From a virus (Duplodnaviria > Caudoviricetes), in IMG/VR virus record IMGVR_UViG_3300037311_000503, positions 1 through 45,135 of that record: a stretch of DNA of 45,135 nucleotides; one strand, written 5' to 3'. This document shows positions 8,738-30,452 of this stretch, piece after piece. A program made the translations under genes and the position numbers. The notes beneath the pieces were generated by a model. That model did no database searches and was not told where the DNA came from. It saw only the letters and a program-made list of their open reading frames with translations. Each line of letters starts with the position of its first letter. Position 1 is the stretch's first letter.

Positions 8738-10185
8738 CAAACGACACAAACCAGACGGCGACTGGGCAGGAAGCAACCGGCCAGTCTGCGGCGAACGCGG
8801 TTGCTCACGTGGCCGCCAGCGTGGCAGCCGACGTCGCGGCGGGGGGAATGTGGACCCGCGTGCACACGAACAGCGGCCAGAGCGTGGGCATGTTTGCAAG
8901 TGTGCGTGCGGCTATCGACGCTGCGCCGCCTGGTGCGGTTGTCACGCTGCCAGCGGGGAGCGTCGACCTGGGCGCGAGCCTGCACATCAACAAGCCGCTG
9001 ACCCTGCGCGGAACAACGCGCGTCAGCCCGACCTTTGGGCAGGGTGTGCTGCAAAACCTTACCTGCATCACGGGCATGCCCAAAGATGACGAAGAGGCGA
9101 TGATCTCGATCGCGCAGGGCTCGGGCATGGGAACCAGTGCGCCTCGCAGCGGCGTGGTGATTGAGCGCCTGCGGATTCGCTGCGATCGTGTGCCGGAGGT
9201 GAAGAGCTCTCAGCGTGCCAAGGAGGGCATTGACGGCATCCGCATTCGCGGTGGTGATGTTGGTACGGTGACACGGGTCGACATCATTGACTGCGATCTG
9301 TCGCATGGCAGCGGCGGCATCGCTATTCAGCTGACCAACGAAGGGCAGCCGGACAACAACCTGTTTGTGCGCATCGAGGGGTGCCACATCCACGACACAT
9401 TTCCGTCGATCATCGCGCTGGCTGATGGGCGCTTGCATCGCGCATCGCATTCGCAGGGCGTGTACTTTGCGGGCGGCACGATCACGATGACTCGGTGCGT
9501 GATTGAGCGCATCGGCTACGTGCGCGGATCGCGCATTTTCACACGGACCAACAAGAACCAGGGCGTGTACGGCGCGTCGGGGACATTCCTGCTGACCGAA
9601 AACGTGGTCAGCGACGTTTCGCACTGCTGCTATCAATACCGCGCGTGCATCGTGACCAGCATCGGGAACATCGCGGATTTGTCGCCGATGGGCTTTCAGT
9701 TTGGGCATCGTGAAAACGCGGACTACGCCAGGGCAGGGCGTGGCATTCTGGCCGTGGTCGTGTCTGAACGCGATCGCGTTCGGCGGCCCAGGCCCTTCCC
9801 GGATCGTCAGTTGGGAGGGCCGACGCTCGGCTGCGGCGTGCACTTTGACGACGCCGGGTCGATCCGTGTGCGTGATCTTGTGATCGATGGCGACGGCGGC
9901 ATCTTCGGCGGCTGGGGTGGCCTGCACCTGTCGCGCGTCAACGACACGATCATCGACGTCGATGGCATCGGGGTGCGTGGCTGGGCCAAGGGGCTGCACT
10001 GCAACTGGCCACTGGCTGCAAACGCTCGCCATCGCTGGCGGCGTGTGGTGTTGCGCGACTGCGAGCCGATGCTCTCAGTGCCGTGGCGCGACGAGGGGGA
10101 CCTCACGACCAAGATGGGCGGCAGGTGGGAAGCGTGCGAGCTGGGACCGCTGGCGGAAACGCTGACGGAGCAGCTGGTGGCGTAG
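8731..10185 (+). CDS. Right-handed parallel beta-helix (pectin-lyase-like) protein
   Basis: SVRAAIDAAPPGAVVTLPAG cap, INKPLTLRG, VVIERLRI, IEGCHIHD and HSQGVY motifs. Confidence 0.75.
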   Translation: MVANDTNQTATGQEATGQSAANAVAHVAASVAADVAAGGMWTRVHTNSGQSVGMFASVRAAIDAAPPGAVVTLPAGSVDLGASLHINKPLTLRGTTRVSPTFGQGVLQNLTCITGMPKDDEEAMISIAQGSGMGTSAPRSGVVIERLRIRCDRVPEVKSSQRAKEGIDGIRIRGGDVGTVTRVDIIDCDLSHGSGGIAIQLTNEGQPDNNLFVRIEGCHIHDTFPSIIALADGRLHRASHSQGVYFAGGTITMTRCVIERIGYVRGSRIFTRTNKNQGVYGASGTFLLTENVVSDVSHCCYQYRACIVTSIGNIADLSPMGFQFGHRENADYARAGRGILAVVVSERDRVRRPRPFPDRQLGGPTLGCGVHFDDAGSIRVRDLVIDGDGGIFGGWGGLHLSRVNDTIIDVDGIGVRGWAKGLHCNWPLAANARHRWRRVVLRDCEPMLSVPWRDEGDLTTKMGGRWEACELGPLAETLTEQLVA

Positions 10186-10229
10186 GCGAAGCGAGGCTTG
10201 GCGGGTCAGGTCACGGGACGGATCGGAGT

Positions 10230-24895: not shown

Positions 24896-25157
24896 AGGCT
24901 CCGGCTGTTTGCCGCTGATGGCGGCTGGAAAAGATCGGCTGGAAAAAACTTGCCACAAAATGTGCTACATGTGTCAAGACGCGTGCTATGTAGTGCGATA
25001 AAAGGGTCACACCAGTTGGCGACGCGGATGCGAAAAAGGGGTGAAGCAGCCCCCCGCGTCGCTTAAGTTTGGCAGGATATGGACGCGGCCTGCGTGTGGC
25101 GGGTTGTGCAACGTTGGTGGGGCAAAGCGGGCTGGGAAGGCTCATGAGGAGTGCAAT

Positions 25158-25622
25158 ATGGCTGGGAAGTTTGCGATGATTCCGACGGTGAATGTGCCGC
25201 AGCTGGTGGTGCTTTCGTGCGGGGCAAAGGCTCGCGTGCGGGCGGCAACACGGACAGACAAGCGGCGGCTGACGACGGCGTGCGAAGGGAACGGCGAGAT
25301 TGGTTTTTTGGCCAAGCTCACCGAGGCCTCGGTGCGGTTTGGCGTTGTGGGGCTTGACAGCGGGGACAACGGCGAGACGCTGCGCAACGTGCAAACGGGA
25401 AAGCCGGTGGAGGTCAAGCGGGCTGGGGACCGCGAGTATCCGGGGCTGGGGGATATTTGCAGCAGCGCGCTGTATGACGCGCTCTCCAACGAGGACGTCA
25501 AGGCAATCAACGCGGTTGTCATGGGCAACACCGACGCGTTTGGGAATGCGTTTGGTGATGATGGCAGCGGCGAAAGCAGCGGGGAAACAGGCGGAGAGGG
25601 CAGCGACCCAAAAGCGTCGTAG
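25158..25622 (+). CDS. Tail assembly chaperone (gpG-like)
   Basis: GAGGAG SD, position after the tail tube, and slippery CCCAAAA just before the stop. Confidence 0.75.
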   Translation: MAGKFAMIPTVNVPQLVVLSCGAKARVRAATRTDKRRLTTACEGNGEIGFLAKLTEASVRFGVVGLDSGDNGETLRNVQTGKPVEVKRAGDREYPGLGDICSSALYDALSNEDVKAINAVVMGNTDAFGNAFGDDGSGESSGETGGEGSDPKAS

Positions 25623-26236
25623 GGCCTGCTGGCCTCAGCGCACTGCATGGGCTCATGCGGAAGACGGCTGCCTGGGTGCATGCGATGCGGGCCACGGTCG
25701 CGGCGGAGCTTGCTGGGGAGGAAGACAACGCGGCGGAGGCCGCGAGGGCGTTGCGGCCCTGCCCGACGTGCGAAGGAAAAGCGGCGGGCTTTGGTGGGAG
25801 TGAAGGTTGTGGTTTGTGCGATGGGCTTGGATTTGTGCGCGGAGATTCCTCTGGAGGTTGTGGAAAGGAAAGTGGGAATACGTGGGAGGCCTGCGAAGGA
25901 CCTGGGGATGGGAGCAGCTCGGGAGGGAGGGCGGGGGACGGCACGCGATCGCAGGGCGTGCCGCCCGAGCTGGCGGAGGCGTGGGGAGTTGTGGGCGACT
26001 GCCTTGCCGCCTGGCGGGCGATTGAGACTTACGGGATTAGCGATGGGCTCATGGCGCTTGGGGGGCCAGAGGCCCTTGCACACGGCTGGCACCCGGTGAT
26101 GTTGGAGCTGGTGGAGGAGCTGAACCAGGAGCTGTCGCGACTGGAACACGAGGACCGCAAGCTTGAAGCGAGCCGCGCACGCAAGGCTCGCGAGGCGGCG
26201 GAACGCAGAGCACGCTTGGGGCGGGCTGTGCGGTAG
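25607..26236 (+). CDS. gpT-like -1 frameshift extension of the tail chaperone
   Basis: C CCA AAA at 25607-25613; the -1 frame is open from there into ORF 25655-26236. Confidence 0.75.
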   Translation, partial: PKSVVGPAGLSALHGLMRKTAAWVHAMRATVAAELAGEEDNAAEAARALRPCPTCEGKAAGFGGSEGCGLCDGLGFVRGDSSGGCGKESGNTWEACEGPGDGSSSGGRAGDGTRSQGVPPELAEAWGVVGDCLAAWRAIETYGISDGLMALGGPEALAHGWHPVMLELVEELNQELSRLEHEDRKLEASRARKAREAAERRARLGRAVR

Positions 26237-26267: not shown

Positions 26268-27077
26268 ATGCAGGCAGAAACGACAACGGATGCGCAGATT
26301 CGGGAAAGTGATTTAGCGAATGAGATGCGCAGCGGCGGCGTGCTGATTGAACCGGCTGTCGCCGAGAACAGCATGCTGGAAGAAAGCCGGTCCGCATCGC
26401 GGGTGGAAGAGGCGGTGCTGAAAGAAGCGGAGCTGATGGCAGAGGCTGCCAAGCTGGCGAGTGTGGTGGAGGTGAAGCCCTTGCGTGCGGACGCAGGCGA
26501 CGTGGACGCTGCGGCGAGCGGTGCTGGCGATGACGTTGGCGATGGCGTGCCGCAGCAGCCGGTGCCGATTCCGCCGCCGACATCGGGATACGTGATCGTC
26601 GGCGAGATTGCGCGTGGGCCCCGCGCGGGGCAGGTGTTTGCGCTTGTGGACCTGGTGGTGCTGGGCGAGTGGCAGAGCGATGGGCATGACACGCGGATGG
26701 CGCACAGGGCGACGCCGGTGTACCGGGACGTGAACGCGGCCCACCTCGATCGCGAGCGGATCGTGGGCTTGCAGCTCGCCAAGCTGCCGACGTGCTTTGA
26801 CGTGGTGCCGCGTTTGACAGTGCGCGAGTTTCGCGGGTTTAGCCCAGCCGACCGGTATGGGCACTCGCTGGTGGTGTTTGGCAGCGAAGCGATCGCTGCG
26901 CCAGAGTGGATGGCGTACACGGTGGGCGTGCACGACGCTGGTGATGCGGCCTCTGCGGCTGATGCGGCTGTTGCTGGCGGCGGGATTGTCGAAGCGATTG
27001 CCAAGGGGCAAATGCAGGCGAACACCCAGGGACAGACGCAGGGCCAAGCACACGCGCAGCCGAACGTGATCGGCTAG
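26268..27077 (+). CDS. Hypothetical protein
   Basis: Acidic low-complexity N-terminus and a globular core; GGGAG upstream. Confidence 0.65.
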   Translation: MQAETTTDAQIRESDLANEMRSGGVLIEPAVAENSMLEESRSASRVEEAVLKEAELMAEAAKLASVVEVKPLRADAGDVDAAASGAGDDVGDGVPQQPVPIPPPTSGYVIVGEIARGPRAGQVFALVDLVVLGEWQSDGHDTRMAHRATPVYRDVNAAHLDRERIVGLQLAKLPTCFDVVPRLTVREFRGFSPADRYGHSLVVFGSEAIAAPEWMAYTVGVHDAGDAASAADAAVAGGGIVEAIAKGQMQANTQGQTQGQAHAQPNVIG

Positions 27078-27101
27078 GCACGCCGCACGTGCGATGGTTT
27101 A

Positions 27102-27171
27102 TGCGGGCGGACTGGTTGTTCGGCGGGGGCTCATATTCCCTGCTTGCCGGGTTCGATTCCCGGGCCCGCTA
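27102..27171 (+). tRNA. Atypical tRNA with CAT anticodon (Met/fMet or Ile2), short D-arm, no encoded CCA
   Basis: Acceptor GCGGGC/GCCCGC with 1:72 T:T mismatch; anticodon arm GGGGG-CTCATAT-TCCCT; T-arm CCGGG-TTCGATT-CCCGG. Confidence 0.8.
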
Positions 27172-27173
27172 TT

Positions 27174-27437
27174 TGGAGCGACGCGGTGAATGAAAAAAAG
27201 TGCACGTTCACTCCGTGCTGTGTAGCAAACAGCAACGCACCGCAACGGCGGAGACAGAGGACGGGAACTGCTCCACGCTTTGACTTTGGAAAGAGAGAGT
27301 GCCGCGTGGGCAAACGACGCTCAACACGAAAGTGAGGTGCTGCATGAAGACCAAGTAAACCGACAGCCCCTGGAGGGATGGAGTGGAAACCTGCTGCTGG
27401 CGCCGCGCAGAGCGCGAGTCTGCGCGGCGTTGGTGGC
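27174..27437 (+). ncRNA. Candidate structured ncRNA downstream of the tRNA
   Basis: Several nested helices, a GAAA tetraloop and a 19-bp terminal hairpin in a ~300-nt gap with no convincing ORF. Confidence 0.45.
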
Positions 27438-27473
27438 TGGGGGGAGAAGCGAAGGCCGCGAAGCAAGGAGACT

Positions 27474-30452
27474 ATGAGCACACAGAAAGTCATCACGGTT
27501 GCCATTAAGGCCAGCGACCAGGCGAGCGGGCCCATCAAGCGGACGATCGCGTCGATTCGCAGCGTGGGCAGCAGTGTGCTCGCAACGGCCCGCACGGTGG
27601 GGAGCGCAGCCAAGGGCACGGCTTCGGCTGCGGTGGCGGCCGCGCGTGCGGCGGCGAGCACGGCCCGCGTGCTGACGAGCCTGCGGACGGTGATGGTGGG
27701 CGGCCTGGCTGCGCTGCTTGCGGGGCGCGTTGTCAGCAGCTTGCGGGCAACGGTGGACGAGCTGGATGAGCTGGGCGAGCGCAGCAAGCGGCTGGGCATA
27801 CCGGCAGAGCTCATGCAGACGCTGGAGTATGAGGCAAAGAAAGCCAACATCGAGAGCAGCCGGTTGTTTGCGACGCTGGGCGTGGGGAGCCGTGTGCTGG
27901 GGGACTTTGCACGCGGACGCAACGACCGCGTGGGCGAGCTGCTGCGGCAGATTGGCATCGATGCGCGGGATGCCAGGGGCAATGTGCTGGGCATCGTGGA
28001 CCTGCTGCCCAAGCTGCAGCAGGCCTTTGCGGTGCAAGGCCTTGGACAAGGGGCTAGGGACAGCATTCTCGCGCAGCTGTTTGGGCGCGGCGGGCCCGAT
28101 GTGATCGGGCGGCTGCTGGCGAGCGGCAACTTTGGCGATGCGACCAAGCGGCTCAGCGAGCTCGGCGGCATCGCGAGCACCGAGGACATTCGCCGCGCAC
28201 AGCTGCTGGCCGATGCGATCGATGACCTGGGCGTGGCGTATCGCGGGGTCAAGCGCGAGCTCGTCGCTGCGCTGGGACCGGCGGCGACAAGCATTCTCCA
28301 GGTGTTTGCGCGGGAGCTTGCCAAGCTACCCGATAGCGTGCGGGGCATCGGCCTGGCGATTGTGGAAAGCCTTGGAGGCGGCCCCAACGGCAAGCTCGCG
28401 ACCGAGCTGCTGGATGACCTGAAGGCGAACTTGCTGGGGGCCCTGCAAACCACTGCGGTGCAGTTGGCGCGAGGATTTGGCACGGCCCTCATCGCGGCGG
28501 TGGACTATGGGCTGGCGGCGATTGGGCCACGGCTTGCCGACATGCTCGGCGACAACCTTGGCCCGACCATCAAGGCCGTGACGCTGGGGGCGGTGGACCT
28601 GCCCAAGAGCATCGCGAAGCAAACTCAGGAAGCGCGGCAGGAGCTCGAGGAGCTGCGGCGGGCTGCGCAGGACTTTGCGGATGAGCAGGACAATCTCATC
28701 AACAACCCTCGCCTGGATGGCGCGGACCGCGTGTTTGCGGAGCAGCAGCTGTCGGCGATGCGGGCGCGGCTGGGGGGTGACCCCGAGCAAGTGGTGAAGC
28801 GTGCAAAGAACGCGGTGGATGTGCTGACAGCCCAGCTCGAGCAGCAGAGCAGGGCACGCGCGGCGGCGGCGGAGGCGGCGTTTCGCGATGGCGTCGCGGC
28901 GACGCAGCAGGCGTGGACCGATGCCTCGAGCAAGATCAGTAAAGAATGGGCGGCGGTGTCGTACACGCTGGATGACTTTGCGGATTTGTACCGGCAGGTC
29001 AATCCGGAAACCAGCGAGGAGGCCAAGCGGGCAGAGGAAGGCGTGAACGCGTTCGCCCAGCGCATTGCTGTGAAGCTGGTGCGCGGCGTGCAAACGGTGC
29101 AGGGGTGGATCGGCGAGCTGCGCGACACGGTGTCGAGCTATGCGCGGGCGATAGCAGACACCGTCGCGGCCAACGAGGCGCTCTCAGACTTGGAGCTGCG
29201 GCGGCAGGCGGCCTTTGGCGGGCGGGCCAACGACAATGCTGTGGCGATGGCGCGGCTGGAAAACGCCCAGGCGCAGGAGCGGATGCGGCTGGCGGGGCAG
29301 TATGGGGCAAAGAACGCGGAGCTGCTGGCGACGCTGCGCGAGGTGCAGGCGGTCGAGCGGCAACGCCTGGGAATTGACCAGCAGCTGGCAATGCAGACCG
29401 AGGCGATGGCGGCTGCACAGGAAGAGTACAACGCGATGCTGACGCGGCGCGCGGAGCTGGTTGAGAGTGGCAGCATGAGCGAGCAGATTGCGCAGCTGGG
29501 CAACGCCAACAGCCAGCGGCGATACATCGCGCAGCTGCGGGAAGCCAAGGCGGCGATCGAGGAGCTGGCGGCGGCGGCTGGGCCAAACTTTGCGGCCCTG
29601 GTGCAGCCTGCGATCGCCAACGTGGGCCGCGAGCTGGACCTGGCGGCGGGCAAGGCCGAGCAGGCCTCGCGCGGCAACTGGAAACAGGGCATCAAGGATG
29701 GCATCCGCCAGATACAGGAAGAGGCGAGCAACCTCTACGGGTTTGCCAAGGGGTTTGTGACAGAGATCGCCAGCAGCATCAGCAGCGGGCTGTCGAATGC
29801 TTTCGTCGATGCGATCGCGGGCGTGCGCAGTCTCAAGGACGCGATGCGGGACTTTGCGGCCAGCACGCTGCGGATGATCAGCCAGATGATCTTGCAGTTT
29901 CTGGTGCTGCGGGCGGTGGCGGGGATCATGGGCAGCTTTGGTGCGAGCGAAAGCACCATCAAGGGCGTGACCGGGCAAACGGGCTTTGGTGTGCCGGGGC
30001 AGGCGGGCGGGCGCAGCGTGCGGCATGCTGGGCGCGGCACGGGCGCACGCATGATTCCGATGGCGGGGCTTGTGCCTGGCAGGCTGGCGTTGGGCGGCTC
30101 TGCACGCGGGTACAACAACGGCGGGCTGGTGATGGGGGGAGCCAACGTGAACGCCGACACGGCCCTGATCGCGGCGGCAACGCGCGAGTATATCGTGTCG
30201 CGCCGGGGCGTTGCGGCCAATGGCACGGCGGTGATGCACCACATCAACGCGGGCGGCAGGGTCGCGCCGGTGGGAGCTGGGGGCGGGCGCATGGCAGGGG
30301 GGACCACGATCAATGTGTCGGTGCACATGGGCAGTGGCAACGCGAGCGCACGCGACTTAGCGGCGGTGGAACAGGCGGCGCAGCGCGGCGTGCTCAAGGG
30401 CTTGCAGCAGCAGCCGGGCTTTCGCGCAGCGATGCGGGAGGGGCTGCGATGA
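27474..30452 (+). CDS. Tail tape measure protein
   Basis: AAGGAG SD, IKASDQASGPIK start, long Ala-rich helices, C-terminal NNGGLV...EYIV. Confidence 0.92.
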   Translation: MSTQKVITVAIKASDQASGPIKRTIASIRSVGSSVLATARTVGSAAKGTASAAVAAARAAASTARVLTSLRTVMVGGLAALLAGRVVSSLRATVDELDELGERSKRLGIPAELMQTLEYEAKKANIESSRLFATLGVGSRVLGDFARGRNDRVGELLRQIGIDARDARGNVLGIVDLLPKLQQAFAVQGLGQGARDSILAQLFGRGGPDVIGRLLASGNFGDATKRLSELGGIASTEDIRRAQLLADAIDDLGVAYRGVKRELVAALGPAATSILQVFARELAKLPDSVRGIGLAIVESLGGGPNGKLATELLDDLKANLLGALQTTAVQLARGFGTALIAAVDYGLAAIGPRLADMLGDNLGPTIKAVTLGAVDLPKSIAKQTQEARQELEELRRAAQDFADEQDNLINNPRLDGADRVFAEQQLSAMRARLGGDPEQVVKRAKNAVDVLTAQLEQQSRARAAAAEAAFRDGVAATQQAWTDASSKISKEWAAVSYTLDDFADLYRQVNPETSEEAKRAEEGVNAFAQRIAVKLVRGVQTVQGWIGELRDTVSSYARAIADTVAANEALSDLELRRQAAFGGRANDNAVAMARLENAQAQERMRLAGQYGAKNAELLATLREVQAVERQRLGIDQQLAMQTEAMAAAQEEYNAMLTRRAELVESGSMSEQIAQLGNANSQRRYIAQLREAKAAIEELAAAAGPNFAALVQPAIANVGRELDLAAGKAEQASRGNWKQGIKDGIRQIQEEASNLYGFAKGFVTEIASSISSGLSNAFVDAIAGVRSLKDAMRDFAASTLRMISQMILQFLVLRAVAGIMGSFGASESTIKGVTGQTGFGVPGQAGGRSVRHAGRGTGARMIPMAGLVPGRLALGGSARGYNNGGLVMGGANVNADTALIAAATREYIVSRRGVAANGTAVMHHINAGGRVAPVGAGGGRMAGGTTINVSVHMGSGNASARDLAAVEQAAQRGVLKGLQQQPGFRAAMREGLR

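Follow-up and report, generated by a model that had tools for sequence, protein, structure and literature searches.

A tRNA-adjacent non-coding insert in the tail operon of a provirus: a plausible but unproven orphan RNA

Does the non-coding DNA that separates a tRNA-like element from the tape measure gene of this provirus give rise to an RNA of its own? The window (the whole stretch of DNA analysed, 45 kb, a provirus 71% complete) has a lambda-like order of head and tail genes, with an integrase gene at its end. A first-pass annotation had placed an unrecognised structured RNA at this site, either released by tRNA processing or acting as a leader of the tape measure gene. Judging from the sequence, a new non-coding RNA released by tRNA processing is plausible.

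An accessory cassette in the tail operon

The tail tube has a homolog with 83% identity on a contig of 11.3 kb. For the tube gene, the closest named relative belongs to a Phycisphaerae genome (43% identity), and the tube profile matches 8 of 401 Phycisphaerae-class genomes, 2 of them strongly. Since relatives sit in Phycisphaerae genomes, the host of the provirus is probably a planctomycete, which gives indirect support to the host guessed previously. Behind the tail tube gene there is a 262-nt gap (24896-25157) with A-rich tracts and no detectable sigma-70 consensus, where a promoter or another RNA could lie. The next genes, on the plus strand at 25158..26236, probably encode the tail assembly chaperone pair (G, 25158-25622; GT part, 25655-26236). 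This label is suggested by their position between the tail tube and tape measure genes and by weak tblastn matches that occupy this position in two related phages (L032 and L124). The motif GGGAAAC at about 25582, some 40 nt before the G stop codon, recurs towards the 3' end of G in L008, L032 and L124; we take it to be the likely G/GT frameshift site, a role known from lambda.

The chaperone pair forms the left border of an insert of approximately 1.2 kb that consists of an open reading frame (ORF X), the tRNA-like element and the putative RNA. The right border is the tape measure protein gene (27474..30452, plus strand), identified by PHROG and Pfam matches. Its start codon and a Shine-Dalgarno-like AAGGAG together span 27465..27476 on the same strand, as read from the sequence, and the proteins of relatives align from residue 2-4. 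ORF X, the first part of the cassette (26268..27077, plus strand, 269 aa), has one homolog with 59% identity on a contig of 19.7 kb, and a conserved core at approximately residues 95-225, flanked by low-complexity ends. It gave no Pfam or PHROG match, no Atlas hit and no tblastn match in seven related loci.

In the related phages L008, L032 and L124, the chaperone and tape measure genes are spaced by 66, 3 and 15 nt, respectively, and none of the three carries ORF X, the tRNA or the RNA at that junction. Four further, more distant loci did not reach the junction or did not align to it. Because all three related phages lack the insert, we regard the putative RNA as accessory, dispensable to the tape measure gene of the relatives, and not as a conserved tape-measure leader; the same spacings weaken the leader function that had been offered as an alternative. 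In L008, a GC-rich palindrome is repeated behind the tube gene (~9240-9260) and the GT gene (10165-10190).

The element starts 3 nt behind the tRNA called by ARAGORN, as annotated, and the gap between this tRNA and the tape measure ATG measures 302 nt. The description of the operon as otherwise tightly packed was overstated: the 396-nt gap at this site is the largest, but 5 of the 26 other gaps in the ORF list exceed 100 nt.

A tRNA-like element, an A-rich core and a terminal hairpin

A small hairpin (27078..27092, plus strand) lies in the leader of the tRNA-like element, which occupies 27102..27171 on the plus strand. ARAGORN identifies the latter as an aberrant tRNA-Met(CAT) of 70 nt; it folds into a cloverleaf (z -2.44) with an intact T arm and a 7-nt anticodon loop. 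It carries a U1.U72 mismatch and, in its anticodon stem, a GGG/CCC run; its D arm is shrunken and CCA is missing. The 1:72 mismatch and the GGG/CCC run, which are initiator hallmarks, are shared with initiator tRNA-fMet along with the CAT anticodon. Unlike the initiator, the element is only 70 nt long, has a shrunken D arm, lacks CCA and has G-U pairs flanking its GC run. It is also missed by RF00005 (cut-off 29 bits), the best score within the tRNA clan being 17.4 bits, and its odd spacing pattern was matched in 2 of 401 genomes, in both cases by ordinary tRNAs. It is best called tRNA-like: what had been annotated as a phage tRNA retains the ARAGORN call and the cloverleaf but is not a canonical tRNA. 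The shrunken D arm may make it a poor substrate for RNase P.

An odd CAT tRNA accompanies a phage RNA in one further case: in locus L048, a GOLLD RNA is followed directly by an atypical tRNA-Met(CAT)-like element (1365-1438 of the oriented copy). A similar sequence follows the GOLLD of L025 and of L047.

At the distal end of the element, a 19-bp hairpin without a U tail (27393..27437, plus strand) was confirmed exactly as annotated, with 14 Watson-Crick and 5 G-U pairs. Its folding z score is -5.65 (none of 200 shuffles folds as well), and it surpasses in stability all 3006 45-nt windows sampled from the plus strand. It is the only part of the element that folds better than chance.

The intervening A-rich core (27174..27392, plus strand) is non-coding and contains many short, partly exclusive helices. 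All the helix strands previously named were found at their positions: TGGAGC (27174) with GCTCCA (27270), GTGAAT (27186) with GTTCAC (27206), TGCTGT (27216) with ACAGCA (27229), CCGC (27240) with GCGG (27248), GCGGTG (27183) with CACCGC (27238), CAC-GAAA-GTG (27325) and CCC-TGGA-GGG (27368). Several of these are mutually exclusive. The sequence 27174-27390 (217 nt) gave a z score of -0.11, 88 of 200 shuffles folding as well, and its first 103 nt (27174-27276) a z score of -1.68, equalled by 11 of 200. Watson-Crick stems of at least 5 bp number 20 in the core against an expectation of 14 +/- 3.4, a count reached in 17 of 300 shuffles. The TGGAGC/GCTCCA helix that would close the structure has a pairing probability of 0.03 or less when longer regions are folded; only the GAAA hairpin at 27325 (about 0.8) and, less so, CCGC/GCGG pair with high probability across fold windows, and no dominant structure emerges. 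Thus, of the structured RNA proposed at the outset the terminal hairpin stands beyond chance, but the core folds like its shuffles and its ornate fold is putative; the insert, the tRNA mimic and the terminal hairpin are solid.

The A content of the core is 30% against a mean of 18%, and none of 206 plus-strand tiles is as high. Such A-richness is expected of a loop-rich RNA in a GC-rich genome and equally of plain intergenic DNA. Two small coding candidates lie in it, an 11-codon frame near 27190 and an in-frame ATG at 27378 that has no spaced ribosome-binding site. On the minus strand, a terminator-like hairpin with a T run (an A7 run when reversed) at 27202..27218 is a consensus match only.

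These folding data bear on the main rival to a released RNA, namely that there is no discrete non-coding RNA here but the trailer left by a tRNA gene in decay, in which only the 19-bp hairpin functions, as a processing or mRNA-stabilising site before the tape measure gene. The unremarkable z score of the core, the non-significant stem count, the failure of the tRNA against its Rfam model and the lack of detected homologs all fit a trailer of this type. Against it stand the extreme A content combined with short GC stems and the probable GAAA tetraloop hairpin. On balance we consider a decaying trailer less likely than a released RNA.

The hairpin also bears on a cis-acting leader, possibly tRNA-responsive, that would tune tape measure expression by setting the 19-bp hairpin against upstream helices. 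The element lies directly 5' of the ribosome-binding site, and in predicted folds of truncated transcripts the 5' arm of the hairpin is able to pair upstream. However, relatives express the same gene without the element, the plus strand has no U tail, Rfam yields no T-box match and the Shine-Dalgarno sequence is unpaired in minimum-energy folds of the full-length sequence, all of which makes this leader quite improbable.

Comparison with known RNA families

Searches of Rfam, at gathering thresholds and at E<=10, returned only chance-level matches for the element, so the statement that it could not be matched to a family holds. Three phage RNA classes nevertheless resemble it in their setting. 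GOLLD (RF02032; Kretsch et al., PMC12286853) is likewise a phage or prophage RNA found beside tRNA genes and provided with A-rich linkers. It was an attractive candidate because the GOLLD env-38 lies downstream of a Met-tRNA, as the element does, and because two short words (AACCGACA and GTGGAAA) occur in the same order in env-38 and in the core. In contrast to GOLLD, the element measures about 270 nt instead of 800 and lacks GAAAGGTGTC and the 3' helices. The RF02032 model of the GOLLD 3' domain did not match it (true GOLLDs score 227-316 bits), profiles of the 5' and 3' domains built from ten loci showed no similarity, and in pairwise comparison 213 of 1000 shuffles reached its score. With model, profiles and pairwise tests all negative, GOLLD membership was rejected.

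The second class, manA (RF01745), is described as cage-forming (10.64898/2026.07.01.735769) and is similar to the element in size. It can adjoin a tRNA, lying 1 nt behind one in phage S-CREM1, and by eye the start of the element resembles the manA consensus GGGaGUGaCUGAAU. Unlike manA, the element has no GUGGUG/ACCA kissing-loop pair in register. RF01745 gave no match, while the S-CREM1 control scored 96.6 bits, and the pairwise z score was below 0; membership in manA was rejected on these two negative tests.

Theta ribozymes begin within 5 nt of tRNA ends (PMC10879173), and in this the element, which starts equally close to a phage tRNA end, resembles them. It is far longer than these minimal ribozymes, and no nested double pseudoknot core was found in it. 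A custom descriptor, run without a positive control, detected no HDV-like P1/P3/L3 core in 27172-27300, and Rfam gave no ribozyme match. The theta analogy drawn in the first-pass annotation failed at this descriptor, and a self-cleaving theta- or HDV-like ribozyme that trims the tRNA 3' end is scarcely credible.

By eye, the closest likeness is to type A RNase P RNA (RF00010) with landmarks in rotated order. Compared with Escherichia coli rnpB, these comprise GGAGC, TGAATGA, GAGGA followed, 8 nt later as in rnpB, by GCTCCA, a GAAA hairpin, GTGC..CA, AAACCG plus a hairpin, and then GTGGAAA. This raised the alternative of a degenerate, circularly permuted RNase P-derived RNA behind a tRNA-like substrate, which would bind or decoy tRNA without cutting it, having kept an elbow-binding double T-loop but no longer carrying the canonical P4 sequence. 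Of 16 family comparisons, the one with permuted rnpB gave the highest z score (1.55-1.60; 20 of 300 shuffles), and an AG..A/UG..A core is present: a possible double-T-loop-like module, matched by descriptor but not significant, at 27342..27394 on the plus strand (AG..A at 27354, a hairpin at 27360-27381, UG..A at 27384 and a closing helix 27342-46/27390-94).

Formal tests were unfavourable. A chain of nine blocks derived from 30 rnpB genes scored 35 bits on the element against 150-177 for five real RNase P RNAs, a score reached by 80 of 500 shuffles, yet by only 3 of 298 genome tiles. The CR-I/CR-V core of P4 (GAGGAAAGUCC ... ACAGAANNCGGCUUA, as in rnpB) is absent, and blocks A and I never figured in the best chains. 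A search with nhmmer gave no hit on the element, and a model of the J11/12-P12-J12/13 module (R1) missed it while finding E. coli (50 bits) and the Microcystis phage MaAM05 (32.5). The AG..A/UG..A descriptor, which matches 27354-27390, found a match in 134 of 500 shuffles too, and in 15 of 334 tiles. The S-domain-like fold reaches -18 kcal/mol, against -37, and the 19-bp hairpin competes with it. Moreover, the landmarks were picked post hoc, after GOLLD and manA had also looked alike by eye, and the permuted-order references were of type A only, type B and archaeal RNAs being covered by linear Rfam scans. With P4 and CR-V missing and four formal tests no better than shuffles, filing under RNase P was rejected, and the permuted-RNA alternative appears rather improbable. 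Its fuller form, also improbable, is a natural tRNA-RNase P conjugate: a permuted RNase P-derived RNA fused, at a distance of 3 nt, to an aberrant initiator-tRNA-like element as its own substrate, with the elbow module kept and the catalytic helix rewritten, acting as a tRNA binder or decoy late in infection. If true, it would be an instance of a ribozyme component put to new use next to a tRNA mimic. The by-eye likenesses to GOLLD, manA and RNase P were not accepted as proof, since none of them passed its shuffle controls.

Several other RNAs surfaced. The record of MaAM05 (L112:448-847; MW495066.1) includes a type A RNase P RNA that is full-length but unannotated (251.8 bits); it may be genuine cargo of the phage, or else host DNA that entered the assembly. 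A 97-kb viral contig bears a divergent tmRNA gene near a GOLLD (L025:193-580), and another viral contig a YrlA-like match of 46.4 bits, below cut-off (L049:1248-1354).

Search for relatives and a proposed mode of release

Diverged homologs did not turn up in any of five viral pattern scans, in a metagenome scan, in two DNA searches of 401 genomes, or in the phage and plasmid collections. The viral scans produced 7, 0, 22, 28 and 5 matches, none resembling the RNA; Rfam was applied to 20 matches from each of the two largest sets (22 and 28) and identified 1 and 10 GOLLDs, respectively. The 3 metagenome matches were all unrelated. The 401 class-level and 401 phylum-level genomes, which are overlapping samples, yielded 5 weak matches to the GC-rich hairpin of the element, plus a single one to the T arm of an ordinary tRNA. 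Viral scans led by single proteins found nothing, and the GOLLD model matched 0 of 151 genomes, a result made uninformative by the absence of any detected control there. We describe homologs as not found, and not as absent, because scans for exact motifs have little power without knowledge of which positions are conserved. Literature titles and abstracts, with subscription papers largely outside their scope, contained no description of this element or of a natural permuted RNase P RNA. Four 17-nt words of the element had no match in 3 of the 6 supplementary files of PMC10690425, which reports 8495 candidate RNAs from IMG/VR; a prior listing of the element is possible. Further sources were 10.1101/2024.12.08.627333, PMC6582537, PMC9964418, PMC2864571, PMC11143913 and PMC3664808.

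The only outside copy of the sequence came from a pond sample of another study (run X2, labelled DNA by guess), as two 151-nt contigs of depth about 10; no RNA holder of the sequence was listed. One contig (27176-27326) differs at a single letter (1/151) and the other (27329-27478) at 6 letters and 1 gap (7/151), an imbalance that speaks against a decaying trailer but with differences too few to test. The outer ends fall no more than 5 nt from the start of the element and from the tape measure start codon. Such ends would fit a discrete RNA and one duplicated DNA read pair equally, and so give a weak hint. No other long piece of X2 was found over 19.9 kb, where missing cover proves nothing. 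The three listed substitutions are all outside the terminal stem. The variant at 27391 turns a U.C mismatch into a U-A pair and completes the helix 27342-46/27390-94. Of five truncated folds, four then give this helix a pairing probability of 0.98-0.99 and one gives 0.49; with the terminal hairpin included, the value drops to 0.08 or less. A single consistent change is not covariation.

We postulate, with a probability of roughly 45%, an orphan RNA of about 270-300 nt that is released by tRNA-type processing and has a structural role like that of GOLLD or manA. What the DNA shows is a cassette that relatives lack, a cloverleaf whose T arm is intact, an A-rich non-coding core and a terminal hairpin; every step beyond this anatomy is inferred. 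The cassette would be transcribed together with the tail genes, as part of the late transcript. Of the host enzymes that process tRNA, RNase P would cut before 27102 and a 3'-trimming nuclease near 27172, and such cuts around the tRNA-like element would give the downstream RNA a fixed 5' end. The 19-bp hairpin could serve as a 3' barrier or as a double-strand cleavage site. The product, in the least certain step, would be a protein-free structural RNA held by A-rich loops, outside the GOLLD and manA families. In favour of the released RNA we counted the empty site in relatives, the cloverleaf, the top A content, the most stable hairpin, the X2 contigs and the tRNA-adjacent cases of env-38, S-CREM1 manA and L048. 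Counted against it were the core z score of -0.11, the lack of a dominant structure and of a diverged homolog, the ambiguity of X2 and the shrunken D arm.

Overall, the orphan RNA is plausible and unproven, with tRNA-type processing the likely route of its release; it stands at present on one sequence and one proven hairpin. The known tRNA-adjacent phage RNAs, GOLLD, ROOL and manA, are protein-free cages of unknown function. If the proposed reading is true, the element would add an unrelated member of only ~270 nt, carried by a small temperate phage in a cassette for which relatives offer a clean empty-site control, and its small size would make it easy to synthesise, probe and image.
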